Part shown: positions 232 through 50,317 of the stretch, in pieces
Position numbering within the stretch: position 1 is the first letter of the stretch
How the letters are laid out: every line of letters starts with the position of its first letter
Source: an uncultured Candidatus Saccharibacteria bacterium
GTDB taxonomy: Bacteria > Patescibacteriota > Minisyncoccia > 2-02-FULL-40-12
Reading direction: 5' to 3'
Assembly (NCBI GenBank): GCA_964368135.1
Contig: CAYIZI010000003.1
Location: forward strand, 1 to 50,317
Length of the DNA: 50,317 nt
Notes under the pieces: model-generated
The model's input: only the letters and a program-made list of their open reading frames with translations
What the model was told of the DNA's origin: nothing
Database searches by the model: none
Made by a program: the position numbers and the translations under genes

Positions 232-915
232 TCAAGCGGTATTATGTATTTGATAAATAGGGATTTTTGAAACAAAATTGGCCTTACGTTTCAAGCCGAT
301 AGGAAAATTTTTATAATACATATATCTTAATAATGTTTCAGAATCTTTCATGCCATATCCTAATTTTAAAGAGTTGCCTCTATTATAAATACCGAGTTTT
401 TTGTATTTTAAATTTAGTTCATGCTTTAATGCGTCCATCAGGCCTTCTAGAAATTTTTTACTTCCTGATGTAAAATTTGTTCTCAGTTCTCTTGTATATC
501 TTTTATCCTTAGTTCTGATATATTTAACAAAAAATACACTACCATCGCCATCAAAATAACCGCGAATAAAATCTTTTATATAGTTTTTTGGAATATAAGG
601 GAATTCTATTATTCTACTTTTACATCTTAAACCTCCGAGTTTGATTAATTTTTCATATAATTTCCTAGAATGCATAGCAATTTGCCATACATTGTCTTCT
701 TTGCGTAAGCGAAGAGGATGAGTTGAATTCATTTTAGATCGAATTCTTTCTAGAATTTCCCTATCTTTAGAAAAGAAAAGAATCCTGTAAGATTTCTCCT
801 TTCTCATATAGCCATCCGCAAACCAAAACCCTAATATGTAAGCCATTGTTGGATTCCAGGCGTCAAAAAACGATTCGTTGATTTTGTATTTACGGTTTGT
901 ACTACGGTAGACCAT
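232..915 (-). CDS. LAGLIDADG-family homing endonuclease, free-standing
   Basis: 227-aa ORF with two LAGLIDADG-type motifs (LGFWFADGYM and IRGYFDGDGSV). It lies between tRNA-Cys and tRNA-Leu on the same strand. Confidence 0.85.
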   Translation of the reverse strand: MVYRSTNRKYKINESFFDAWNPTMAYILGFWFADGYMRKEKSYRILFFSKDREILERIRSKMNSTHPLRLRKEDNVWQIAMHSRKLYEKLIKLGGLRCKSRIIEFPYIPKNYIKDFIRGYFDGDGSVFFVKYIRTKDKRYTRELRTNFTSGSKKFLEGLMDALKHELNLKYKKLGIYNRGNSLKLGYGMKDSETLLRYMYYKNFPIGLKRKANFVSKIPIYQIHNTA

Positions 916-1024: not shown

Positions 1025-2587
1025 TTAGATACTTCTTCTAATTTTTTCTTCTTGATAAATTTCTAAAATGTCTCTTTCTTGAATTTCAGCCGGTCCTTCA
1101 AACTTGATTCCGCACTCAAGTCCTTCTTTAACTTCTTCCACATCAGCTTTATTGTGCTGAAGCTGGCCTAATCTGCCGGAAATCATTTTAGCTTTATTTC
1201 TTAAAACGTCAATCAGGGCTCCTCTTTTAGCATAGCCCGAAACAACTTTTCCTCCAACAATTTGATAATTGGCGCCGCTTTTGAAAAGTTTTAAGATTTT
1301 TACTTTACCCAACGGGATTATTTTTATTTCTGGTTCAAGCAGTTCGGAAAGCTCCTTTCTTAATTCTTCAATCAGTTCATAGATGACTTTGAATGTTTTA
1401 ATCGCCACCTTTTCTTTTTCGGCCAGCCGTCTGGCTGAATCCTCGGTTTCAACATGAAATCCGTAGATAAATCCCTGGCCATTGGCCGCGGTCTGGACAT
1501 CATTATCTTTTATATTGCCGATGCCGTAGCTGACCACATTATAACCCACCTCTTCGGTCCCGATGTTTTTAATTGACTCACTTATCGCCTCAAGCGAACT
1601 GTGAGTGTCGGCCTTGAACACCAGATTCATTATTTTTTTGCCTGCCCCGTAGCGATGCGAAGCATCTGCTTCGGGGTTTTCCTCCTTTAGGAACAAAGGC
1701 GGCTCAACAACTAAGGCCTGTTTGGCCGCTTCCTGTGCTTCTTTTTTGTCTTCTACGGCTTTAAACTCCTGGCCCACGTCTGGGCCTTGGCTCCAGCCAA
1801 GAGTTAAAACCGGTTGGGACGGCAGAGCTTCTTTTATGTTTTTGCCGGTAAAATCTTCCATCATTTTGATTTTGGCAAAAGTTCCGCCGCTGACAATGCA
1901 GTCTCCGATTTTTAAAGTTCCTTCTTGGACTAAAAGAGTGGCCACGCAGCCGCGCCTTGAATCCAGGTGGGACTCAATAACTATTCCCTTTGCTTTTTGG
2001 TTTGGGTCAGCTTCCAGATTTTCAAATTCGGCGGTCAAAAGGATTAGTTCTAAAAGTTCATCAATTCCTTTTCCGTTTTTGGCTGAAGTTTCAACAGCCG
2101 GAATCTGGCCGCCATAGCCCTCCAAAAAAACTCCGGCTTCAGCCAACTGTTGTTTTATCATGGCTGGCCTTGCTTCTTCTTTATCAATTTTGTTTAAAGC
2201 CGCGATAAAAGGAATTTTTGCATTTTGAATATGTTTGATTGCTTCTTTGGTTTGGGGTTTGACTCCATCGTCGGCGGCAATTACTAAAATGGCGATGTCA
2301 GCTACTTTGGCCCCGCGGCGGCGAATGGCTGAAAAAGCTTCATGCCCCGGCGTGTCCAGAAAAGTTATTTTTTTAACTTGCCCCGAACTGATTGAAGGAT
2401 GTTCGACCTGGTAAGCACCGATATGCTGGGTAATGCCGCCAGCCTCTTTTTCGGCGATTTTAGTCTTTCTGATATAGTCCAGAATTTTAGTCTTGCCATG
2501 ATCCACGTGTCCTAAAACGACCACTATTGGTGGCCGTTTAGCAGAGCTATTAGTTTTAATATTGGTTTCTTCCATAATTGTCGGCAA
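1025..2587 (-). CDS. infB: translation initiation factor IF-2 (short form, 520 aa)
   Basis: G1 motif [16 protein letters not shown] and NKID GTPase motifs, and C-terminal IF-2 domains. The start is non-ATG (TTG) at 2587, or ATG four codons downstream. Confidence 0.9.
1634..1680 (-). repeat. 47-nt in-frame hairpin element, copy in infB (peptide [15 protein letters not shown])
   Basis: Plus-strand TTTTTTGCCTGCCCCGTAGCGATGCGAAGCATCTGCTTCGGGGTTTT aligns without gaps to 7005..7051 in murB, with 36/47 positions identical. The hairpin architecture is the same, with compensatory changes. Confidence 0.75.
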
Positions 2588-2745: not shown

Positions 2746-2781
2746 TTGTTTTTTGTTCATTACAACTTAGGAGAAAATGCA

Positions 2782-4665
2782 ATGAAAAGATGGCTATTGA
2801 CTCTCAGCGCCGCACTTGTGTTTGCTGCTTTGTTTTTCTTTGTCCCAGGACTGTCGGCCTTACAGGTCTTGACTTGGGTTCAGAGATTCCCTTCGCAAAA
2901 TCCAGGAGCCAGATTTTTTCACAGCATGGCTTATGATGAAGCAAGAGGTGGGGCAGTACTCTTTGGCGGATTTACGGGCCAGGACGCTTTAGCCGACACC
3001 TGGGCTTGGAATGGCAGCGATTGGGTTCAGCGGTTCCCCGTTCAAAGCCCTCCAGTGAGATACAGTCATGCAATGGCATACGATGGCGCCCGCGAAGAGG
3101 TTGTGCTCTTTGGAGGATTTCCATTTCCTGCCGGGACACTTTTTTCTGATACCTGGCTCTGGAATGGTGTCAATTGGACACAATCGCCTACAAGCGGTCC
3201 TTCGCGCCGGGGCGCGCATTCAATGGCTTATGATTCTGGGCGTAGAGAAACGCTTTTGTTTGGCGGTTCAAGCCAGACTGGCGGGGTGCTTGGCGATACT
3301 TGGATTTGGAACGGTGCAAACTGGATTCAGTTGTTTCCAACTGAAGCGCCTCCGGCCCGGATGCTTTTTGGGATGGCCTATGATGAAGCAAGAGGAGAAG
3401 TTGTTTTATTCGGAGGCACGACGCTGATCGCCGGGCAAGTCTTTGGTGATACTTGGGTTTGGGATGGCATAAACTGGGCTCAAAAGTCGTCTATTCGTCT
3501 GCCTCCGGCCAGGCGAGACCACAAGATGGTTTACGACAGGGCACGCCAGAGGGTTGTTCTTTTCGGCGGGATCAGTAACGACATTGCATTTTCTGACACC
3601 TGGAGCTGGGATGGTTCAAACTGGACTGAAGAAGCACCGCTGGCAAATCCAGGGCCAAGAGCCAGATATGGTTTGGCTTTTGACTCAACCAGGAATGAGG
3701 CCGTCCTTTTTGGCGGGACCGGTTATTCTGCTGGGGTTGGCTTCGCTGACACCTGGGTTTGGAGTGAAGTTACCGTTCCGGATCCAGTCCCGATTGGGCC
3801 GGAGATTCATTACTTTGCTTTGGGCGATTCGGTGGCTTCGGGTCACGGGCTTATGGATGACGGAACTCCTTGCCGCCGTTCTGATTTGGCGTATCCAAGT
3901 AAAGTAGCCGAGCGCCTTAAGGAACGGTACAAAGAGGTTCACTTTACTTCTTTGGCTTGTTCAGGAGCGAGAGTGAATTTCCCGGTAGAATTTTCCGACC
4001 CACACAAGTTCTTTTCAAACCAAGTCAATGATGTTGTTAGTGCTTTGAGAAGGATTGACGGTGTCCCGACTGTCGTCACCATCACTATCGGTGCCAATGA
4101 CTTTGGGTGGACTGAACTTCGACAGTTCACAGATTTGTTGTATTTAAGCAACCTAAATCGGTTTCAGAGAATTGTGAACAGAATTGGTGCGTCTGTTAGA
4201 CGGACTCTTCGACAGCAGGTTCCCCGGCTTCTTAGGTTCCAGAATGTTACTGTTGTGTTGACCGAGTACCATAATCCGTTCAACACCAACAGTGTATTCT
4301 TTTTAGGACCCGGAGGCCGTTGCGGTTTAATTGAGTGCTATGACCGGACCGAGTACGCCATACATACTTTGAACAACGCAATTGTTCAAGCTTATGTTGA
4401 CTTGGGCCGGCCAAGCAATTTGAAGCTGACGCCTATTCATGGTTTGTTTCACGGTCACGAAAGCCCAAGGCCTTCGTGCGGTAACAATGGGCCAGAAGTA
4501 AACGATACTTGGGTGCAGTACAAGGATGATCCGGACTCAAATAGTTTCCCCTTCAGATTGGATTCGAGTTGGCGAGGGGATTGTATGCACCCTAATAGCC
4601 GAGGCACAGACTTTTACGCGGCTCAAGTTAACTCTGACTTGATTGGCTTGTCCTTTGGTGAGTAG
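2782..4665 (+). CDS. secreted Kelch-repeat beta-propeller fused to an SGNH/GDSL hydrolase
   Basis: ATG at 2782 is preceded by AGGAG; the track start at 2746 is an upstream TTG. A signal peptide is present. About six units of the form W-W-NG-x-W plus MAYD...VLFGG. C-terminal SGNH blocks: GDSVASG, GANDFG and DCMHPN. GC is high (58% in line 3001-3060). Confidence 0.8.
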   Translation: MKRWLLTLSAALVFAALFFFVPGLSALQVLTWVQRFPSQNPGARFFHSMAYDEARGGAVLFGGFTGQDALADTWAWNGSDWVQRFPVQSPPVRYSHAMAYDGAREEVVLFGGFPFPAGTLFSDTWLWNGVNWTQSPTSGPSRRGAHSMAYDSGRRETLLFGGSSQTGGVLGDTWIWNGANWIQLFPTEAPPARMLFGMAYDEARGEVVLFGGTTLIAGQVFGDTWVWDGINWAQKSSIRLPPARRDHKMVYDRARQRVVLFGGISNDIAFSDTWSWDGSNWTEEAPLANPGPRARYGLAFDSTRNEAVLFGGTGYSAGVGFADTWVWSEVTVPDPVPIGPEIHYFALGDSVASGHGLMDDGTPCRRSDLAYPSKVAERLKERYKEVHFTSLACSGARVNFPVEFSDPHKFFSNQVNDVVSALRRIDGVPTVVTITIGANDFGWTELRQFTDLLYLSNLNRFQRIVNRIGASVRRTLRQQVPRLLRFQNVTVVLTEYHNPFNTNSVFFLGPGGRCGLIECYDRTEYAIHTLNNAIVQAYVDLGRPSNLKLTPIHGLFHGHESPRPSCGNNGPEVNDTWVQYKDDPDSNSFPFRLDSSWRGDCMHPNSRGTDFYAAQVNSDLIGLSFGE

Positions 4666-4672
4666 ATCTTTG

Positions 4673-4708
4673 TTCCACTGAGTAGCAACGCAATGCTACT
4701 CAGTGGAA
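4673..4708. terminator. bidirectional hairpin between convergent genes
   Basis: TTCCACTGAGTAGCA-ACGCAA-TGCTACTCAGTGGAA. The 15-bp stem is perfect. Confidence 0.7.
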
Positions 4709-5237: not shown

Positions 5238-5309
5238 TGGACCTGAGGGGATTTGAACCCCTGACCCCGCGAATGCCATTCGCGTGCTCTACCGCTGAGC
5301 TACAGGCCC
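5238..5309 (-). tRNA. tRNA-Ala (anticodon GGC)
   Basis: Acceptor GGGCCTG/CAGGTCC with the G3:U70 identity pair. Anticodon stem CGCGA/TCGCG with loop ATGGCAT. T arm AGGGG-TTCAAAT-CCCCT. Confidence 0.9.
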
Positions 5310-6601
5310 AGTAACCTCTCTCCAACCTTATAAATATCGCCGGCGCCCATTAAGATAATTACATAATTTTTGCCGAAATTAACCATTAAATAATCTACTA
5401 TTTTTCGAAAATTTTCAAGAGCTAAAACACGTCCCCCTTTTTGTTTTATTTTCTCTGCCAGAACTTTAGAGCTTATACTTCCGTCATCTTCTTCTCTGGC
5501 TTTGTAAATCGGCGCTAAGATTATTTTATCCGCCTCGTTAAAACTCTTTGCAAACTCGTTGAGTAGTAGTTTTGTCCGGCTGAAAAGATGGGGCTGGAAA
5601 ACGACTACTAATTTTTTATTAGGAAATTTTTCTCGGAAAGCTTTTAGAGTCGTTTTTATTTCGGTGGGGTGATGGGCATAATCATCATAAACTAAGGCGC
5701 CTATTTTAGTCTTGCCTTTGAATTCAAATCTTCGCCAAACCCCTTGGTAGTTTTTAAGCGCAGTAATTATTTTTTCTTCTGGAATTCCCAAAACCTTAGC
5801 CACTGCGAAAGCTGTCTTTGCGTTTTCAATGTTATGCTGACCTGGGAATTTAAGTTTGAAATTATTTTTAACTTTTGAGTAATTAATGATTTGGCACTTT
5901 GCCGATTTCAGAGCCGGTTTAACTTTTGGATCAACAGGATTACAGATTAGGAATCCGTCTTCGGGAATTTTTGAAACCAGTTCACTGAATGCGTTTTGAA
6001 TATCAACTAAGTTTTTATAATAATCCAAATGGTCAGCTTCAATATTAGTGATCACAAGAATTTTGGGCACGAGATTGAGAAAATGCCGTTGGTACTCGTC
6101 TGCTTCCGCGATAAAGTAATCACTTTTTCCAGCCCGAAAATTACTTTTGGTTTTGGTCCGAAGCGAGCCGACAATCGCGGTCGGATCTTTGCCTGCATCT
6201 TCAAGAATATCAACGAGCATGGCCGTGGTCGTGGTTTTGCCATGGGCCCCGGCAACGGCAATGAGATAATATTTATTGGCAATTTTACCAAGAGCCTGAA
6301 AATATGAGAGCACCGGTACTCCTTTTTGCTTGGCCGCTTCAATAATCGCTGGGTTCATTGTTAGCCAGGCGTCGCTAAAAATGTACAAATCAGCCTCGGG
6401 CAAATGTGTTGGATTTTGGTCCAGCGAGATCTGAACGCCCTGGCTTCGCAGTTCATCCAAAGTTTCCGGGCTCGGATTGTCATTTGTTCCTGAAATTTCT
6501 TTTTTCTCGTGAAGCAACAGCCGAGCAAGCGCTGAAATCCCAACTCCGCCAATGCCGATAAAATGGATTCGCTTTACATTAGATATATTGAATTTCTTCA
6601 T
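5300..6601 (-). CDS. murC: UDP-N-acetylmuramate--L-alanine ligase
   Basis: N-terminal GIGGVGISALA Rossmann motif and the Mur ligase P-loop GAHGKTTTT. 433 aa. The stop codon lies inside the tRNA-Ala 5' acceptor stem. Confidence 0.9.
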   Translation of the reverse strand: MKKFNISNVKRIHFIGIGGVGISALARLLLHEKKEISGTNDNPSPETLDELRSQGVQISLDQNPTHLPEADLYIFSDAWLTMNPAIIEAAKQKGVPVLSYFQALGKIANKYYLIAVAGAHGKTTTTAMLVDILEDAGKDPTAIVGSLRTKTKSNFRAGKSDYFIAEADEYQRHFLNLVPKILVITNIEADHLDYYKNLVDIQNAFSELVSKIPEDGFLICNPVDPKVKPALKSAKCQIINYSKVKNNFKLKFPGQHNIENAKTAFAVAKVLGIPEEKIITALKNYQGVWRRFEFKGKTKIGALVYDDYAHHPTEIKTTLKAFREKFPNKKLVVVFQPHLFSRTKLLLNEFAKSFNEADKIILAPIYKAREEDDGSISSKVLAEKIKQKGGRVLALENFRKIVDYLMVNFGKNYVIILMGAGDIYKVGERLLGL

Positions 6602-7580
6602 CTAAATTTATGCCGAATTTATTTTTAACTTTTTGTTTTAAGATTTTAGCCAGCTTTATTATTTCAGATGATTTGCCTTTGCCCGGATTAAAAATCAAAT
6701 TGCCATGATGCTTAGCTACTTTGATTCTTCCAACCTTCATTCCTTTAGCGCCGACTTCTTCCAGAAGATAACCAGTTGGCACCTTGCCGTGATTGACTTT
6801 GCTTTTGTCTATTTTTGATAAAAATTTTTGCCGCAGAGCCGGCCTTACATTATTAATAACAATATTTTTGAAAAAACTGCCTGGGCACAAAAGACCAGGC
6901 CAATATTTCTTTTCTCGCATTTTTATTATTTCTTTTGATGTTTTTTGAAGTTCCTTGGGATCGCCTTTTTTAAATTTGAACTCCGCCCCCAGAATTATCC
7001 AATCTTTTTTCCCTGCCCCATAGGAAGCCGGAGGCTTTCCTTCGGGGTTTTTAAAAATACTTTCCCGGTAACCAAAACGGCATTGTTTTTTTGAGAGCCA
7101 TTGAGTTTCCTTGCCGTTATAAATTTTCACTTTTGTCAGGCAATCTTTTATCTCTTGGCTGTAGGCGCCAGCCGAACCGTAAATCGCTCCGCCGATTGTG
7201 CCGGGAATCCCGGCCATTTTCTCCATTCCAGCCCAGCCAAACTGATTTAACTTATATATAAATGTAAGAAGATTATTTCCAGCGCCGACAAAAAATCTGT
7301 TTCCATTCTTTTCAAAATTTTTAATTTCATTTTTGATTACCAATCCGTTAAAACCCGAGTCAGACGGTACCAAATTTGAGCCGTCACCAATAATATACCA
7401 TTTAATTTTACTATCTTTTGCCCAGTTAATGGCCGAAATTAAATCATTTTCCTTTTTGGCAATAAAAAAATATTTGGCTGGCCCGCCAATTTTCATAGTC
7501 GTCAGTTTTTTAAGAGGATAATTTGTTAAAATCTTGGCTTTGGGAATCATTTTGGATGTTGATAACTTTTGTTGCACCAT
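6579..7580 (-). CDS. murB: UDP-N-acetylenolpyruvoylglucosamine reductase
   Basis: FAD-binding N-terminus (TTMKIGGPAKYF, GDGSNL) and a MurB C-terminal domain. An alternative start lies at 7550. It overlaps the murC start by 23 nt. Confidence 0.9.
   Translation of the reverse strand: MVQQKLSTSKMIPKAKILTNYPLKKLTTMKIGGPAKYFFIAKKENDLISAINWAKDSKIKWYIIGDGSNLVPSDSGFNGLVIKNEIKNFEKNGNRFFVGAGNNLLTFIYKLNQFGWAGMEKMAGIPGTIGGAIYGSAGAYSQEIKDCLTKVKIYNGKETQWLSKKQCRFGYRESIFKNPEGKPPASYGAGKKDWIILGAEFKFKKGDPKELQKTSKEIIKMREKKYWPGLLCPGSFFKNIVINNVRPALRQKFLSKIDKSKVNHGKVPTGYLLEEVGAKGMKVGRIKVAKHHGNLIFNPGKGKSSEIIKLAKILKQKVKNKFGINLDEEIQYI
7005..7051 (-). repeat. 47-nt in-frame hairpin element, copy in murB (peptide NPEGKPPASYGAGKK)
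   Basis: TTTTTTCCCTGCCCCATAGGAAGCCGGAGGCTTTCCTTCGGGGTTTT. This is the partner of 1634..1680. Confidence 0.75.
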
Positions 7581-7581
7581 T

Positions 7582-7599
7582 TATATCATATATGATATA
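7582..7599. promoter_or_regulatory. perfect 18-bp palindrome in the murB/murA divergent gap (candidate operator)
   Basis: TATATCATATATGATATA equals its own reverse complement. It occupies most of the 32-nt gap between the murB ATG (7580) and the HTH-murA ATG (7613). Confidence 0.5.
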
Positions 7600-7612
7600 T
7601 AAACTGAAAACA

Positions 7613-9088
7613 ATGAGCAATCAAATTACACAAAGAGATATTGGTAAGATGATAATTACTCGACGGACAGAACTCGGCATGACACAAAGTGCCCTTGCTA
7701 AGTTACTCCATACGAGTCAAAGTGCAGTAGCTCGTATTGAGAAGGGTGAGCAAAATCTTACAACTGAGACGCTTGTTAAAATAAGCGGAGCACTTAAGAA
7801 AGACCTCGCTTCTCTTCTAAGCGGCGAATCAAGTTTTTTTATTGAGGGTGGTCATACACTGGAAGGAAAAATTCGGGTACAGGGTGCTAAGAACTCTGCT
7901 CTGAAAATTCTTGCTGCTACACTTCTTTATAAAAGTCCGGTTACTATTCGAAACCTTCCACTTGTTGAAGACATATTCCGTATGATTGAACTTTTAGAAG
8001 ATCTTGGGGCTAAGGTACGCTGGATCGGCGAACGAAGCGTGGAGGCGGATACTTCTGGAGTGAGAAATTATAAGTTGAATCCCGCAATTGCCAAACGTTT
8101 TCGAGGTTCAATTGTACTTGTTGGGCCGCTATTGGCACGATTAGGTAAAGCTATTTTCCCTCACCCTGGTGGATGTGTTATTGGCGAACGCCCAATAGAT
8201 CTTTTTTTGAAGGGGTGGAAGAGTATGGGCGCCAGAGTGAGTAAGAGTGATTCAGGATATAATATTATACTCAAAAATCCTCTTAGTATTGATTATTTCT
8301 TTCGACACGTGAGTGTTACTAGCACCGAGACCTTGATGTTAACTGCAGCCATTCTCGATGGCAAGACCGTATTGCGGAATAGTGCTATGGAGCCGGAAAT
8401 TCCTCACCTTGCCGATTTTTTGAATAAATCCGGCGCAGCGATTACAGGCGCTGGAACGCACACAATAGAGATGACTGGCACTAGAGGATCTTTACTTACC
8501 GCCCGAAAACCATTTAATGTTTTGCCCGATAGAATTGAGACCGCAAATCTTTTGGTACTCGGCGCTCTTTTAGGCAAGAAGGTGGTTATTGAAAATTGTG
8601 TACCTCTTCATGTTCGCCAGATGACTGATACATTGCGTGAGGCAGGAGTTTTAATTGAAGAAGGCGTTAACTCTTTGGTAGTACACAAACCTAGGACACT
8701 AAATAGTATTTCAATACGTACGCATGAGTATCCAGGGTTTGTAACTGACTTCCAGGCACCGTTTACAGTATTGCTTACTCAAGCTTGTGGCGAAAGTACT
8801 GTTTTTGAAACAATCTTTGACGGACGTTTGAATTATTCCGAAGATTTAAACCGCATGGGCGCGCACATCATTATGCATAATCCTTATCGTATTTCTGTAT
8901 CAGGACCTTCTGAACTTCGTGGCCGCAAAATTGAGAGTCCTGACTTGCGAGCTGGTCTTGCTTTTGTAATTGCCGCACTCGTTGCAAAAGGGAAATCTGT
9001 GATTAGCAATATTTACCAGATTGACCGCGGCTATGAACGAATTGATCAAAGATTAAAAGTTCTTGGTGCTAAAATTTCTCGAGGATAA
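7613..9088 (+). CDS. murA: XRE-type HTH domain fused to UDP-N-acetylglucosamine 1-carboxyvinyltransferase
   Basis: About the first 70 aa match the HTH_3 pattern (RRTELGMTQSALAKLLHTSQSAVARIEKGEQN). They continue without a stop into MurA (GAKNSALKILAA). The catalytic-loop Cys is retained (HPGGCVIGERPIDLF). The ATG at 7613 is preferred over the track TTG at 7523, which overlaps murB. Confidence 0.85.
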   Translation: MSNQITQRDIGKMIITRRTELGMTQSALAKLLHTSQSAVARIEKGEQNLTTETLVKISGALKKDLASLLSGESSFFIEGGHTLEGKIRVQGAKNSALKILAATLLYKSPVTIRNLPLVEDIFRMIELLEDLGAKVRWIGERSVEADTSGVRNYKLNPAIAKRFRGSIVLVGPLLARLGKAIFPHPGGCVIGERPIDLFLKGWKSMGARVSKSDSGYNIILKNPLSIDYFFRHVSVTSTETLMLTAAILDGKTVLRNSAMEPEIPHLADFLNKSGAAITGAGTHTIEMTGTRGSLLTARKPFNVLPDRIETANLLVLGALLGKKVVIENCVPLHVRQMTDTLREAGVLIEEGVNSLVVHKPRTLNSISIRTHEYPGFVTDFQAPFTVLLTQACGESTVFETIFDGRLNYSEDLNRMGAHIIMHNPYRISVSGPSELRGRKIESPDLRAGLAFVIAALVAKGKSVISNIYQIDRGYERIDQRLKVLGAKISRG

Positions 9089-21142: not shown

Positions 21143-22072
21143 ATGCGTAAGAACTTTTTGCCGTCGCTCGTCGTTCTGCTTGCTGGGGCCGCGCTGGTCG
21201 TCTCCAGCGGATGCAATATCTTCAGGAACTTGCCGAGTGCACCGGACAGTTCTGATCCGGGCCCCGCGGTCCAGAGAACTATCCGGGTGGTTTCTTGTGA
21301 AACGTTCAGTCCGATTCAAGGCGCCTTTGTTACCGTGGGGAAGAATAATAGTTCTTCGGTTACCGACGGATCAGGTTACGTAACTCTGGAAGCTGGGGAT
21401 AACGACAGGATCAAAATTGAGGCGACCGGATTTTTGGGCCCTCACGATACTCCTCTGAATGGTGAAGAAGAATTTTGCCTTTTTCCGGAAAGACCGGGAT
21501 TTGAAAGAAGTTTTATCCGCCCGTTTCTTTACAAATATATTGATCTGCGCAAACTCCGCAACTCGACCCTGAAGGTCCACTTTTCTGACGAACTCCGGGC
21601 CAACCGCGAAGTTGTGGCAATATATGAAAAAGCAATTCCGATTGCGATGTCTGCCTTTAACGGTCATGTTCGTCCCCCAGAAACACCAATAGTGATCGAA
21701 ATAATAGACGTCAACGACCAGCCTAACTTTGGGGTGGTTCTGGAAGTGTTCTTTAACTCGAATCCCGATGATCCCCCGAGGATAGATACATCGGTTGATG
21801 GGGATAATATTATCTATAGAGCTTCAAGGTCTTACAACCCAAGACATTTTCCCATCACAAATCTGCCCTCTGTTCTTTACACTCTTGGCGCGGTTACCGG
21901 CCTTGGCTCAACGGGTTGGCCGGGAATTATGCAACAGAACAATCCTTCTCCACCTGACGACTTTACGGATATCGAGAAACTAGCCATGCGTATGTCGCTG
22001 TGGAGAAAAGCTGGCAATCAGTTTCCCGACTGCACGCCTGCAAGACTTCAGCCCTGCCCCGCCATACGGTAA
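21143..22072 (+). CDS. lipoprotein of unknown function (lipobox VSSGC), GC-rich
   Basis: GGAGG Shine-Dalgarno site. Signal peptide plus Cys. A carboxypeptidase-regulatory-like beta-sandwich segment (GAFVTVGKNNSSSVTDGSGYVTLEAGDNDRIKIEATGF). GC is 60% in line 21241-21300. Confidence 0.6.
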   Translation: MRKNFLPSLVVLLAGAALVVSSGCNIFRNLPSAPDSSDPGPAVQRTIRVVSCETFSPIQGAFVTVGKNNSSSVTDGSGYVTLEAGDNDRIKIEATGFLGPHDTPLNGEEEFCLFPERPGFERSFIRPFLYKYIDLRKLRNSTLKVHFSDELRANREVVAIYEKAIPIAMSAFNGHVRPPETPIVIEIIDVNDQPNFGVVLEVFFNSNPDDPPRIDTSVDGDNIIYRASRSYNPRHFPITNLPSVLYTLGAVTGLGSTGWPGIMQQNNPSPPDDFTDIEKLAMRMSLWRKAGNQFPDCTPARLQPCPAIR

Positions 22073-22164
22073 TTTTTACCACCTTAGGCGGGGCTTTTGT
22101 TGATAACTGAGTTTATGTATTTTTAGTCTTAATATATAATTAGATTAAATATAAAAAAGTAAGT

Positions 22165-46422: not shown

Positions 46423-49400
46423 TTGGAAGCCATCGAAAGGGAAGGAAAAAAGTTTATAGCTGCTTCGGTATTAGCCGAAGAATTTGGTTATGATCGGAAT
46501 CACATTGGGTTATTAGCTCGCCAAGGAAAAGTTGAAGGAATTTTAGTGGAGAAAAAGTGGTACGTAACTAAAGAATCGCTTGAAAGTTATCGAATCAAAG
46601 CAGCTAAAAACAGAAAGGAAGTCGCCCGCCAAGGCATTCAACTGACTCGAAGGCCAATAGCTCCTTCGTTAGCTTCTTCCCATATAGCCGATGGGACCAG
46701 AGCCATCAGGACATATCTTAGCTCCAGCAATTTGAAACTGGGTTTAAGATATGGCCTGGTGGCTCTTTTTATTTTACTGATAAGCGCGACCAGCCTTAGC
46801 TATTACAAAAATCCGGCCCTTGGCCATAAGACTGGTAAACTTATTAAAGATTCTTTTGATTTGGTTGGCGATACTATTAAACTTCCTTCCTTAACATTAT
46901 TCGAAGCTGCCAAAAACTTAGACACAATTACCCAAGTAGTTACTAAGCCAGCCCGAAGGCTTTTATATGGCGAGCTAATAAAGTTTGAGTCTCCGAAAGT
47001 TATTTCAAATTTTGATTCAGTTTCTAAACCAGCAAATAATTTTAAACGAAATCTGTTTTCTCTTTTGTTAAACAGCAGGAATCTTTTTAAAGAGTATTCT
47101 TATTCTGTTAGAAATGAATACAAAGATTCTCTTTTCGCTATTCATAATGAGCTTATAATCCCATTAGCTGATGCTATTTCTGGCCCCATAACTTATCTTT
47201 TAACTCATCTTTTTGGAAAAGAAGAGCCTAAAGAAGATTTAGCCGAGGAATTAATTCAGAGAATTAAAGAATTAGAGCAGCAGTTAAAAGATGGTCGGTT
47301 CTTTATCTTGTCAAATAACAACATCATAAGAGAAATTGTTGAGAGAGTAGTAGTTGAAACCCAAACTCCAGCCCCGCCTCAAACAGTCCAGCCCTTACCG
47401 GCCATTACTTTTAACCAGGCCCTAGAACAACGTTTTTCAGCGATTGAAAATACTTTGCTTTCTTTTGAGGAAAGATTTTTGAAAACCCCAACTATTATAT
47501 CGCCAATCCCAACTTATTCTGGTGGCGGTAATACTGGAATGACAATTTTAAACCCGGCTACTATTGATAGCGAAACTGTAAAAGCCGTAACTTTGACTGT
47601 CAGCGGCAGCGGAACGATCAGCAAAAACTTAACAATTAACGGAGATTTAACCGTTGATACCAACACTTTCTATGTAGATTCAACAAATAATCGGGTCGGT
47701 ATCTTAACCACCAGTCCGGAAACTGCTTTTGAAGTAATCGGCCTGGCTTCAGTCAGCCAACTGGCTGGCGCTGGTCTGACTGATTGCGATGGCGGCACCC
47801 AATCACTTAAATGGGATGGGACAAATAAGGTATTTTCCTGCGGTAGCGGGGGAGTATCTTCTAATTCTATTGACTTCGATGAAATCGTCGCCTCGGCCAC
47901 CTTTGACACTAACTGGGATATTGCTTTAAACAGCAAGAATCTTGATATTGGGGATGCTAAGTTCTTTATTGAGGGCTCTTCCGGTAAAATCGGTATTGGC
48001 ACCAGACAATTAACCGAAGTTTTAGAGATTTCGGGCAATGCTTCGGTTTCAGGCGGTTTCTTTGGTCCCTCTTTCCCGGCCACTGATTGTTCTACTGAAT
48101 CTCAAACAATTTTATGGAACTCAACTACTGGTAAATTTTCCTGCGGTACTGATGCTTCTGGCGGTGGTGGCGGTGCTTTTCAAGTTAGAGAATACCCACC
48201 CGGTGTAACCGTTTCTGATATCGCCACTATCTCTTTTGATGCCGGGGCTTTTAATATCACTGCTTCAGCCGGCACTGATGCGGTGGTTAAGCTTGACTAT
48301 ACCAATGGCCCGGCTTCAAGAGCGGCTGACCAGACCATTACCGGCAACTGGCTCTTTAACAATGACGTTGAGTTCCAGGATAACTCTCTCACCCGCTTCA
48401 AGTTCGCCTCCACTTCCCTTGGCCGGTTCGGCTTTGGCGACACTTCTCCGGAAACCTTTTTTGAGATTGCGAGTTCTTCAGGGATCGTGGCGAGTATCTC
48501 TGATACCTTCTTTGTTGACGCAACGAACAAATTTATCGGCATCGGGACGACGGGGCCGACTACCGTTCTGCATGTGTCCGGTCCGAGTAGCGGTGGAACT
48601 ATTTGGAACTCTGGGTTGAGAGTTGACCGAGATGGTGGAGGTTCTGTTAATCAATACACGGTCATAAACACGAATGGCGGTGCGACGCAGATCATCGGAG
48701 TTGATTTAACTGCCGGTGCTGGTAATGGGGCAGAAATTATTTTCAATCGCAGCAATACAGGTTCCGGTACACCTTCAGTAAGTATGCGTATTAGTTCTTC
48801 CGGCAACGTCGGCATCGGCGCCGCCCCTTCCACCAAATTTGAAGTCCAGGGCACGGCTTCGGCCTCATACCTTCTGACCGGCAATACTCTGCAGGTTGGA
48901 GGCTTCGCATCGGCGGCATACTCAAGATTCGGGACTTCGACTCTTACTGCCAATCCAGCCGGCAACTGGATAACCGGAAGCAGTGACCTTCTTGTTTCAG
49001 GTGATCTGTACGGCGTCGGTTCAATCGCCTTTGCCGGTCCGGCATCAATGTCTAACACGTTATGGGTATCGCCGGGAGGGTATTCCGGCAACGTCGGGAT
49101 TGGGACGACAAGTCCACAAGCAAAGCTGCATGTTTCAGGTGGCACAATATTATTGGACCATAACAAATACTTGCAAGGCAAAGATTCAGGTGGGACCGTT
49201 AGGGACATTATTGGGACAATTTTCTCTAGCCAAGACATTTTTGATCTTGCTGGAACTGCGGCGTATAACGTACGTATCGCAGCTGGCGGAGGAGATATCT
49301 TATTCCCTGGTTCTGGAGTTTGGAAATCTACAGGTTTCGTCGGCATCGGGACCACTGCCCCCTCCACCAAGTTTGAAGTCCAGGGCACGGCCTCGGCCTC

Positions 49401-50317
49401 CTACCTGCTTACAGGGAATACTCTCCAAGTTGGGGGCTTCGCCTCGGCCGCCTACTCGAGGTTCGGGACAAGTATCACATCCTACTCCCGACTGGGAGAT
49501 ACCAACGATCTCTTAATCACCGACGACCTTGAAGTTGACGGCACGGCTTGGTTTGACGGCACCGTCAACTTCTCAACTATCGCTTCGGCCTCTCTTTTCC
49601 ACGCCCAAGACGGCACCGCTGCTTCTCCCAGTTATACTTTTGCCGTAGATAAAGACACGGGCATGTTCAGAAGAGCAATCAATGCTCTGGGTTTCTCCAC
49701 CCTTGGCCAAGAACGTCTGACCATTGATTCCACCGGCAACGTCGGCATCGGGACGACGAGTCCAACTGTTCCGTTCCATGTTTCGGCGAATGCTCCCACC
49801 GCGGACTACCTGGCCAGGTTCATTAATAGCCAAGGAACCCGCGCGTTAGGGCTTATAATCCAAACGAATACGGCCAGTGCGGTTGCGAGTGACCCGCTGT
49901 TCAACGTTATCGGCGGTGCCGACACGAGATTCAAAGTTGAAACCGGCGGCAACGTCGGCATCGGGACGAGTACTCCAACCTCTCTCCTGACTGTCCAAGG
50001 AAGAGGTGAGTTCCAAGGCACCGCCTCTGCCTCCTACCTTTTGACCGGCAACACTCTCCAGGTCGGGGGTTTTGCTTCGGTCGCTTATTCAAGATTCGGT
50101 ACTGACGCAACTACTCACGCCGGGACCATTGATGCCTCAAACGATCTTCTTATTTCTGGCGGTCTTGAAGTGAATTCTGATGTCTTCTTTGATTCAAAAG
50201 CCAGTATCTCTTCCAATCTTCAAATCTCTGGCCGATTCATTGCCGATACCGCCGCCTCCCACTCTTTTACCGGTGATCTTAATATCTCTGATGATTTATC
50301 AGTTGACGGTTCTGCTT
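46423..50317 (+). CDS. giant HTH-TM-anchored surface protein with tail-fibre-like GNVGIGT repeats (3' partial, at least 1298 codons)
   Basis: This ORF is absent from the track. I split every 60-nt line from 46441 to 50317 into codons (line starts are in frame) and found no stop. An in-frame TAG at 46417..46419 closes the frame upstream. The first start candidate is TTG at 46423. The N-terminus has an HTH_17-like segment (ASVLAEEFGYDRNHIGLLARQGKVEG...KKWYVTKESLESY) and then a TM helix (LRYGLVALFILLISATSL). Confidence 0.85.
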   Translation, partial: MEAIEREGKKFIAASVLAEEFGYDRNHIGLLARQGKVEGILVEKKWYVTKESLESYRIKAAKNRKEVARQGIQLTRRPIAPSLASSHIADGTRAIRTYLSSSNLKLGLRYGLVALFILLISATSLSYYKNPALGHKTGKLIKDSFDLVGDTIKLPSLTLFEAAKNLDTITQVVTKPARRLLYGELIKFESPKVISNFDSVSKPANNFKRNLFSLLLNSRNLFKEYSYSVRNEYKDSLFAIHNELIIPLADAISGPITYLLTHLFGKEEPKEDLAEELIQRIKELEQQLKDGRFFILSNNNIIREIVERVVVETQTPAPPQTVQPLPAITFNQALEQRFSAIENTLLSFEERFLKTPTIISPIPTYSGGGNTGMTILNPATIDSETVKAVTLTVSGSGTISKNLTINGDLTVDTNTFYVDSTNNRVGILTTSPETAFEVIGLASVSQLAGAGLTDCDGGTQSLKWDGTNKVFSCGSGGVSSNSIDFDEIVASATFDTNWDIALNSKNLDIGDAKFFIEGSSGKIGIGTRQLTEVLEISGNASVSGGFFGPSFPATDCSTESQTILWNSTTGKFSCGTDASGGGGGAFQVREYPPGVTVSDIATISFDAGAFNITASAGTDAVVKLDYTNGPASRAADQTITGNWLFNNDVEFQDNSLTRFKFASTSLGRFGFGDTSPETFFEIASSSGIVASISDTFFVDATNKFIGIGTTGPTTVLHVSGPSSGGTIWNSGLRVDRDGGGSVNQYTVINTNGGATQIIGVDLTAGAGNGAEIIFNRSNTGSGTPSVSMRISSSGNVGIGAAPSTKFEVQGTASASYLLTGNTLQVGGFASAAYSRFGTSTLTANPAGNWITGSSDLLVSGDLYGVGSIAFAGPASMSNTLWVSPGGYSGNVGIGTTSPQAKLHVSGGTILLDHNKYLQGKDSGGTVRDIIGTIFSSQDIFDLAGTAAYNVRIAAGGGDILFPGSGVWKSTGFVGIGTTAPSTKFEVQGTASASYLLTGNTLQVGGFASAAYSRFGTSITSYSRLGDTNDLLITDDLEVDGTAWFDGTVNFSTIASASLFHAQDGTAASPSYTFAVDKDTGMFRRAINALGFSTLGQERLTIDSTGNVGIGTTSPTVPFHVSANAPTADYLARFINSQGTRALGLIIQTNTASAVASDPLFNVIGGADTRFKVETGGNVGIGTSTPTSLLTVQGRGEFQGTASASYLLTGNTLQVGGFASVAYSRFGTDATTHAGTIDASNDLLISGGLEVNSDVFFDSKASISSNLQISGRFIADTAASHSFTGDLNISDDLSVDGSA
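48802..50103 (+). repeat. three ~135-156-nt intragenic repeats (48802..48936, 49333..49470, 49948..50103)
   Basis: Each encodes G(N/F)VGIG..P(S/T)..(F/L).VQG..TASASYLLTGNTLQVGGFAS(A/V)AYSRFGT. Copies A and B are identical over 37 aa but differ at about 16 synonymous sites. Confidence 0.85.

Follow-up and report, generated by a model that had tools for sequence, protein, structure and literature searches.

A short palindromic repeat translated within infB and murB of a Saccharibacteria bacterium points to a probably mobile element family spread across Patescibacteria

Two minus-strand genes in a 50,317-nt stretch of DNA from an uncultured Candidatus Saccharibacteria bacterium (contig CAYIZI010000003.1, positions 1 to 50,317; here called the window) each contain a 36-nt, GC-rich palindromic element that is translated as part of the protein. 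The genes, both essential, are infB, encoding translation initiation factor 2 (IF-2), and murB, encoding UDP-N-acetylmuramate dehydrogenase (Table 1). The two segments are very probably an inserted mobile repeat, and we consider it likely, with slightly less confidence, that they represent independent insertions of one family of very small, non-autonomous mobile palindromic repeats. The element is classified here as a coding palindrome similar to the repetitive extragenic palindromes (REPs) and the Rickettsia palindromic elements (RPEs) and set apart by its new tag, its defined target, A^CAA (the caret marks the junction, here and below), and its exceptional taxonomic spread.

A shared 47-nt segment had been predicted at both sites, and it was recovered at positions 1634 to 1680 in infB and 7005 to 7051 in murB. 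The two strings align without gaps and are identical at 36/47 positions, and their surrounding flanks are unrelated. As also claimed, both lie within minus-strand open reading frames (ORFs) and are translated in one common frame, giving a 15-residue peptide in infB and NPEGKPPASYGAGKK in murB. The copies fold to one hairpin, in agreement with the predicted common fold; the folding energies of the sense RNAs are -19.9 kcal/mol (z -4.0) for infB and -18.8 kcal/mol (z -2.0) for murB, and the same hairpin is obtained from either strand. We likewise reproduced the compensatory pattern of the original prediction: eight of the 11 differences between the copies are four double changes that preserve pairing (core pairs 9-24, 11-23, 13-21, and 14-20), and the remaining three are one loop base, one change from G-C to G-U, and the base after CAGG. 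A covariance model trained on 23 sequences, both window copies among them, gave 57.2 bits for the murB copy and 55.8 bits for the infB copy. Only these two clear copies were found in the window by regular-expression and covariance model searches, and no further in-frame palindromic insert was seen among the strong hairpins scanned across it.

Alignments with orthologues indicate that the inserts are not ancestral. The extra 12 residues of MurB are present in the window protein alone and are lacking in 119/120 homologues; here the closest orthologue, which is 79% identical, has FKN-KKDW. Among the aligned IF-2 proteins, the segment falls in a linker of variable length, and the closest ~25 orthologues are without it. 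The homologues of the two proteins are labelled IF-2 or UDP-N-acetylmuramate dehydrogenase of Patescibacteria/Parcubacteria, the closest named relatives being Giovannonibacteria-like. Empty sites were also identified in the DNA. The murB orthologue P0002 reads TTT AAA AAC^AAA AAA GAC, where the window has TTT AAA AAC^CCC GAA ... GCA GGG^AAA AAA GAT, and the infB orthologue P0122 reads GAA AAC^AAA AAA ATA, where the window has GAA AAC^CCC GAA ... GCA GGC^AAA AAA ATA. In these two filled/empty pairs, both gains are exactly 36 nt at AAAAC^AAAAAA, with zero duplicated target bases. The two lysines that follow the insertion site are found in all aligned IF-2 orthologues and in nearly all of the 120 MurB homologues. 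Because element-free orthologues keep the A/T runs, the 36-nt core CCCC...CAGG is the element and the runs are its target; the 47-nt segment proposed earlier is truly shared, and the element proper is the shorter unit within it. The boundary of the infB copy is uncertain by 1 nt (1640 to 1675 or 1641 to 1676). In murB the strict inserted block is 7011 to 7046, and the core 7012 to 7047 requires one later synonymous change, GGC>GGG.

The common frame of the two copies, and the Gly/Pro/Ser-rich peptide encoded by the commonest frame of the family, would also be expected if the shared segment were a selected protein motif (a PEGK..YGAGKK loop), ancestral or convergent, with the DNA likeness being secondary. 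We regard this as extremely improbable, since the motif is missing from the 119 MurB homologues and the closest IF-2 orthologues and the same DNA also occurs in other reading frames, in antisense, and outside ORFs, which effectively refutes it. Its nucleotides are conserved at degenerate code positions, the MurB model shows the peptide as disordered, and the insert found in RuvB (see below) is conserved less than the remainder of that protein (0.63 versus 0.83). A different in-frame insert of 10 residues was noticed in the MurB orthologues P0023 (L256:1001-1972, labelled Giovannonibacteria) and P0036 (STSGGSVADG and SASGGSAVGG), ~11 residues downstream of the insert site of the window protein. 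Its DNA consists of tandem 15-nt mini-hairpins (TCCACCTCCGGTGGA and TCCGTCGCAGATGGA) and may represent a second coding-palindrome family in these genomes.

Further copies were sought in two scans. The pattern CCCCGAAN{18,27}GGGGCARGNAAAAA matched at least 118 loci in genomes, one genome per species, and the pattern CCCCGAAGGN{12,24}CCTACGGGGCAGG matched at least 120 loci in metagenomes. After weak hairpins and duplicates had been removed, the pooled scans gave at least 222 non-redundant copies, and the family is not limited to the source genome; the genome-scan set alone contains 77 distinct hairpin cores among the matches listed. The 78 ORF-borne copies of the genome scan fall into at least 39 unrelated protein clusters. 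Hosts identified by Pfam include (i) the repair, replication, and transcription proteins UvrA, UvrC, RuvB, DnaE, topoisomerase I (TopA), and RpoC; (ii) the translation proteins EF-G, LeuRS, and PheT; and (iii) ribonucleotide reductase, ComM-like, CDC48-like, and P-type ATPases, ComEC, a DNA methylase, Mur ligases, and an O-antigen ligase. In several genomes uvrA has two copies per gene (e.g., L038 and L109). A chance likeness, or an artefact of assembly or sequencing, could be considered on the basis of the window alone, where a simple pattern scan is weakly significant (2 matches versus 0.23 expected; 4/100 shuffles reach 2). Hundreds of copies are present in assemblies of many unrelated projects, and lineage-specific variants occur in frame in conserved genes with empty-site alleles; with more than 200 independent copies sharing consensus and fold, this explanation is refuted and its probability is negligible.

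The element consists of CCCCGAAGG, a variable stem and loop, and CCTACGGGG, followed by an unpaired CAGG tail, and is 33 to 42 nt long, most often 36. Across the 77 distinct cores the basal stem, CCCCG-A-AGG/CCT-A-CGGGG with an A.A mismatch, is conserved and is accompanied by a bulged A, the apical stem is free to vary and ends in a short loop, and the 3' CAGG is unpaired. In 23 distinct 36-nt copies, 95.7% of the cells are paired and six pairs have changes in both partners. Covariation scores 0.389, compared with 0.106 for shuffles (0/500 reach the observed score) and at most 0.094 with slid partners, and the helix is thus kept, with covariation, in the additional copies. The mismatches (G:T, 14; A:C, 10) reveal no RNA-strand preference, and an assignment of the RNA strand via wobble pairs was uninformative.

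In a scan without flank constraint, the copies were preceded by A in 65% of the cases (position -1) and followed by C (64%) or T (23%) at +1 and by A at +2 (66%) and +3 (55%), giving A^CAA. This agrees with the murB and infB empty sites and with the RuvB site AQVH^KK (CA[C/T]^AAA, inferred from protein). The element lands precisely between the A and C of A^CAA-like sites without target-site duplication (TSD). It is also able to insert into its own copies: in L206 a complete inner element occupies the loop (G^CAAG) of an outer one, and in L185 one outer element harbours a pair of inner elements (A^CAAG and A^CGGGG). At one RuvB site, proteins that are at least 82% identical split into a filled clade (48/120) and an empty clade, and the filled site contains several distinct hairpin subtypes as well as degraded remnants. 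Empty sites, further copies, and retention of the helix all support the earlier proposal of a mobile or duplicated structured element that, like the RPEs, tolerates translation. The A run was rejected as an element part or obligatory target, since copies detected when it was not demanded show different right-hand flanks; a poly-A or retroelement origin was dropped for the same reason. Copies situated in CAAAAAT heptanucleotide runs (tcaaaaat-ELEMENT-caaaaatcaaaa) were observed in L145, L168, L209, L219, L158, L095, L103, L106, and L087; these runs lie inside long ORFs, in different frames, and are A-rich tracts in which the A^CAA target is repeated.

Among the at least 222 copies, 131 are ORF-internal in sense orientation (126 with a length that is a multiple of 3), 12 are ORF-internal in antisense orientation (10 with such a length), and 79 are at gene ends or between genes (50 with such a length). 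About two thirds of the matches listed (143/222) are thus ORF-internal. Translational-bypass inserts, such as those of T4 gene 60 and "byp" of Magnusiomyces mitochondria, are also short hairpin-containing segments inside coding sequence, and their frame and stops are unconstrained. Because 126 of the 131 sense-internal copies are multiples of 3 and stop-free, the present element is read through, not bypassed or spliced.

The sense-internal copies use the three frames in the ratio 93:29:9, while A^CAA sites are about equally available in each (308:370:351). The favoured frame encodes the Gly/Pro/Ser-rich PEGK..YGAG; other readings are PKESKLPTGQ, PRRK.., and antisense ones, and copies are also present outside ORFs. 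The sense:antisense bias of 11:1 tracks the host gene and neither the neighbouring genes nor GC skew; the ratio is 81:6 with neighbours on the host strand versus 24:1 without, a comparison based on short contigs in which peptide selection could override a primary bias. Target availability was rejected as the cause of the orientation, as ACAA versus TTGT (1.3:1) and AACAAA versus TTTGTT (2:1) are insufficient for 11:1, and a replication-tied orientation was unsupported. The simplest reading of the frame and orientation biases is purifying selection on the encoded peptide, such that intragenic copies survive when the frame is preserved and the resulting peptide is tolerated. In the AlphaFold2 model of MurB (mean predicted local distance difference test score [pLDDT], 89.8), the only internal segment below 50 comprises residues 180 to 189, inside the insert, which is predicted to form a disordered surface loop between two strands. 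The infB insert, aligned to the IF-2 of T. thermophilus (PDB 3j4j), falls in a variable linker that immediately precedes the first strand of the C1 domain. Model and alignment confirm the linker or loop positions proposed earlier for IF-2 and MurB.

Strong covariation, a basal stem and tail that are near-invariant across distant lineages, and a sense bias that follows the host gene might also be produced by a host-selected cis signal with the peptide as a by-product. Such a signal could be an mRNA pause, processing, or stabilising element, a site for DNA uptake, recombination, or protein binding, or an antisense terminator. The antisense strand of both window copies does run into TTTT in a terminator-like manner, but a T run following this hairpin is not a feature of the whole family, A being present at -2 to -4 in ~47 to 48% of the copies; the terminal and intergenic copies, whose two orientations are about equally frequent downstream of genes (14 versus 13), were rejected as terminators, and the G:T and A:C mismatches show no preference for either RNA strand. 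Presence and absence vary among close orthologues of essential genes, copies are scattered among at least 39 unrelated gene families without a consistent position, each of the three frames and either orientation can be used, and the element inserts into itself, all of which counts against a cis signal. At pattern-selected RuvB loci the core is 0.94 identical compared with 0.51 at flanking synonymous sites, in a set biased to intact copies, whereas four RuvB orthologues picked solely by their diverged insert peptides, regardless of DNA pattern, have changes without compensation in both stems, basal and apical, and in the tail. Because settled orthologous copies decay without compensation, the covariation reflects the needs of mobility and not a host function of each copy. 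The structure-preserving covariation described earlier accordingly holds between family variants and not as upkeep of each copy in place. We infer that the infB and murB copies are passengers without host function, and a cis signal appears unlikely.

The record labels of the true copies are, among the matches listed, overwhelmingly those of Patescibacteria, including Saccharibacteria, Nomura-, Nealson-, Giovannoni-, Yanofsky-, Kaiser-, Moran-, Falkow-, Brenner-, Zambryskii-, and Roizmanbacteria as well as Paceibacterota, and a few copies are labelled Elusimicrobia, Ignavibacteria, or Armatimonadota. Five loci (L111, L026, L045, L049, and L113) carry the element together with typical Patescibacteria genes and are filed as "Thermoplasmatota archaeon" or "uncultured Gammaproteobacteria," labels that are probably due to mis-binning. 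IF-2 orthologues of three other lineages contain different family variants in the same linker: CCCCGAAGGAGCCCGCCAAGGCGGACCCTACGGGGCAAG in P0143, a 60-nt form in P0178, and, in another frame, CCCCGGTACC...ACTACGGGGCAAG in P0179, which is read as PVPSASSGTTGQ. A subfamily was noticed in which the 5' arm CCCC(A/G)GTAC... replaces CCCCGAAGG (L257:1001-2611, which encodes IF-2 P0179; P0185; P0202; P0224; P0178; L083; L095; and L122). It is often in another frame, PVP..(A/T)TGQ, and recurs at a second position of Yanofskybacteria-type IF-2 linkers.

The element was not found in the viral-contig collection, where a loose pattern gave 12 chance-like matches without hairpin or flanks and the specific pattern gave one chance-like match. 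In a search against Rfam 15, only the 8 tRNAs of the window reached the gathering threshold, and nothing meaningful was obtained at E values up to 10 for positions 1590 to 1730. Full-text literature searching revealed no description of the element in the candidate phyla radiation (CPR)/Patescibacteria, a report in a journal outside the searched literature being possible.

Among known systems, the RPEs, reportedly described by Ogata et al. in 2000 and 2002, are also palindromes located in frame in functional, often essential genes of a small-genome bacterium and translated as loop residues, and there, too, one element family occupies many unrelated genes plus intergenic sites. The copies analyzed here are, in the same way, in frame in functional ORFs, translatable, and missing from orthologues. 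RPE-1, at ~100 to 150 bp, is much longer than the 33- to 42-nt element, and the RPEs are confined to one genus, whereas the present family is superphylum-wide; the defined A^CAA target and nested self-insertion, shown for the element, are further differences. No sequence likeness to the RPEs was noticed, and the published descriptions of size and tag set the two apart (PMC3733652). RPE-4 and RPE-6 are short CGTC-tagged REPs (PMC3733652).

REPs have an unpaired GTAG or CGTC tag at one end of the palindrome, and intragenic copies have been described in uvrA (two inserts), dnaE, and recBCD (Di Nocera et al. 2013, PMC3733652). The element has in common with GTAG and CGTC REPs an imperfect palindrome of 20 to 40 bp, a short unpaired end tag, a variable stem and loop, the lack of a TSD, and intragenic copies that favour repair and replication genes, paralleled here by UvrA, UvrC, RuvB, and DnaE. 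It also resembles REPs in general, as its 33- to 42-nt palindromes are dispersed in at least 222 copies with covarying stem and loop variants, and no transposase is known for the CGTC REPs either. The tags do not correspond, however: the antisense GTAG lies inside the helix as G-C, T.T (sense A.A), A-T, and G-C, and there is no CGTC at either end of the 77 distinct cores. Furthermore, REPs are predominantly extragenic, whereas most of the listed copies are ORF-internal, and REPs are normally species-level, whereas the sequence of the element is conserved far beyond species. The head-to-head or tail-to-tail dimers typical of REPs (bacterial interspersed mosaic elements) were not noticed among copies that were not searched systematically for them, only nested and adjacent copies.

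Members of the IS200/IS605 insertion sequence family have hairpin-defined ends and insert precisely beside a fixed 3- to 5-nt target without duplication, and they can be mobilised in trans. The element likewise inserts without TSD beside a short fixed target, according to flank composition, the two DNA empty sites, RuvB, and the nested copies. It differs in having one hairpin instead of distinct left and right ends, no link between orientation and replication was detected on the short contigs, and no transposase was tied to it. [quoted passage not shown] MITEs such as Correia/NEMIS, RUP, and Nezha are also short, non-autonomous, and dispersed and are sometimes fused in frame with genes. The element, a single whole hairpin of 36 nt, is not a MITE, because it has neither TIR nor TSD.

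Hairpin and tail together may serve as the recognition signal for mobilisation. If so, active variants would keep their pairing by covariation while settled copies decay. One tentative possibility is that a single-stranded DNA hairpin is mobilised in trans by an HUH or Y1-type nuclease, in the style of REPs and their REP-associated tyrosine transposases (RAYTs) or of IS200/IS605. The lack of TSD and of TIRs, the hairpin with a short single-stranded tail, and the short fixed target are consistent with this idea, and Y1_Tnp genes are present in element-bearing loci, three of them confirmed by Pfam.

Several observations weigh against a mobile palindromic-repeat family of this kind. (i) No cognate transposase was found: in ~1.6 Mb of fragments, 0/7 inspected Y1_Tnp genes are flanked by the element, so that no REPtron-like bracketing was seen, and 6/7 are accompanied by their own, different palindrome, either at each side or at the single side covered (e.g., GATGGAGGTT[G/C]AACCTCCATC in L166). 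(ii) The basal stem and tail are near-invariant across very distant lineages, which is unusual for the normally species-specific REP families and hints at a conserved partner or a further function. (iii) The orientation is set by the host gene, contrary to what is predicted for lagging-strand-targeted IS200/IS605 elements, although peptide selection could mask such an effect. (iv) Both scans demanded conserved ends, and decayed or divergent copies are under-sampled. (v) The copy count of 2, possibly 3, is that of the 50-kb window. (vi) The taxon labels were taken from the records as written, and some resemble mis-binning.

The Y1_Tnp genes, located on Patescibacteria fragments, are IS200-like (RAYT-like) and encode proteins of ~230 to 250 amino acids (L166:848-1558, L155:292-975, L230:1850-2596 and 8327-9049, L040:1814-2494, and L152:2368-3069). 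Those of L166, L155, and L040 and the first gene of L230 each have the same private palindrome on both sides (e.g., the L166 palindrome given above and GAACGACTTGCGATGTCGTTC), the L152 gene has one palindrome upstream, and other repeats surround the second gene of L230. Such arrangements look like REPtrons or TIRtrons unrelated to the element. No clear palindrome was picked out in the flanks of the L186 gene, and an eighth gene, in the chance-match locus L115, was excluded from the inspection. Small GIY-YIG genes are common in the vicinity as well; Y1_Tnp or small GIY-YIG genes near intergenic copies could not be linked to the element on account of their own palindromes or inconsistent geometry. 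With Escherichia coli RayT as a query, ~1 Mb of loci gave one weak match only, in a non-family locus. An antisense copy was observed at the same site of a putative ligA (LigA by eye) in five metagenome contigs (L186, L188, L195, L208, and L230); a Y1_Tnp gene is inserted just downstream of ligA in L186 and L230 and is absent there in L195 and L188.

The Y1_Tnp genes in these genomes, the size of the element (33 to 42 nt), and the antisense-strand GTAG located 5' of the variable stem would also suit a true GTAG-superfamily REP moved by an unsampled dedicated RAYT. Intragenic REPs are known in repair and replication genes, with double uvrA insertions in Opitutus terrae and others (PMC3733652), and UvrA here also has two copies. 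The defining tag is, however, unpaired and terminal (PMC3733652), whereas the GTAG here is base-paired in the stem and the unpaired end is CAGG/CCTG. Given also that none of the seven inspected Y1_Tnp genes is element-flanked, that E. coli RayT yields no other match in ~1 Mb, and that REP families are normally lineage-specific and not superphylum-wide, a true GTAG REP seems improbable. Also speculative is a new class, an ultra-small site-specific (A^CAA) mobile hairpin with a near-invariant basal stem and CAGG tail that a conserved Patescibacteria-wide protein other than a RAYT would recognise. The putative reader could be an enzyme dedicated to mobilisation or else part of a host process (e.g., DNA uptake, recombination, or mRNA processing) for which some of the copies have been co-opted. 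A conserved reader protein, if real, would explain the persistence of one sequence throughout a superphylum, unlike the species-specific REPs.

Patescibacteria have tiny, gene-dense genomes that are thought to be poor in mobile DNA. In these genomes a 36-nt element has repeatedly entered core genes, including those for RNA polymerase, DNA polymerase III, IF-2, EF-G, UvrA/C, RuvB, tRNA synthetases, and Mur enzymes. As the insertions are translated, such repeated entry steadily supplies essential proteins with new loop sequence. The family is a clear case of "selfish DNA in protein-coding genes" beyond Rickettsia and a few REP-rich species, here extending over a superphylum. The insertions are usable as presence/absence markers for tracking strains and for the phylogeny of the CPR, call for caution with alignment-based trees and with structure prediction, and mark permissive sites for protein tagging in the newly tractable Saccharibacteria. 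The element could also mark CPR contamination in bins, and its defined target, lack of TSD, and conserved tail make the mobilising enzyme concretely searchable.

Table 1. Element copies, their target flanks and host genes, and a possible relative in the window
Feature	Position	Strand	Description
infB copy	1641..1676	-	36-nt core CCCCGAAGCAGATGCTTCGCATCGCTACGGGGCAGG; hairpin and unpaired CAGG tail; read as N, then 12 residues
murB copy	7012..7047	-	36-nt core CCCCGAAGGAAAGCCTCCGGCTTCCTATGGGGCAGG; read as (N)PEGKPPASYGAG
Right-hand target flank, infB	1634..1640	-	Sense C AAAAAA, Lys-Lys codons; outside the element
Left-hand target flank, infB	1677..1680	-	Sense ...GAAAA directly 5' of the core
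Right-hand target flank, murB	7005..7011	-	Sense G AAAAAA; empty counterpart in P0002
Left-hand target flank, murB	7048..7051	-	Sense ...AAAA
Host gene infB	1025..2587	-	IF-2, short CPR form, from homologue labels and alignment
Host gene murB	6579..7580	-	MurB, 332 aa; FAD_binding_4 and MurB_C; insert at residues 178-189
Possible distant relative	22053..22093	-	CCCCG-[27 nt]-CGGGGCAGG; only basal stem and tail in common; 16.1 bits, E 0.036

The possible distant relative of the element folds at -21.6 kcal/mol (z -3.85). On the plus strand it forms a terminator-like hairpin followed by TTTTGTT at the 3' end of the ORF at positions 21143 to 22072, and its membership in the family is uncertain. 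A perfect hairpin with 15-bp arms (TTCCACTGAGTAGCA-ACGCAA-TGCTACTCAGTGGAA; -25.2 kcal/mol) at positions 4673 to 4708, between convergent ORFs, is probably a bidirectional terminator with no relation to the element family.

Some other features of the window were also noted. A free-standing ORF of 227 amino acids that resembles LAGLIDADG homing endonucleases (positions 232 to 915, minus strand) is situated among tRNA genes (106 to 190 and 951 to 1023) just downstream of infB. At ~7000 to 8500 the GC skew changes sign, the cumulative skew has its minimum, and genes are divergent, with a murC-like gene (5300 to 6601) and murB on the minus strand and an ORF encoding a helix-turn-helix domain fused to a MurA/EPSP-synthase-family protein (7523 to 9088) on the plus strand; this region may represent an origin of replication or just the border of an operon. 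The G+C content is higher at 2746 to 4665 (0.48) and at 48000 to 50000 (0.52) than in the surroundings (~0.40), and the former segment encodes, on the plus strand, a 639-amino-acid protein with Kelch repeats and a GDSL lipase domain.

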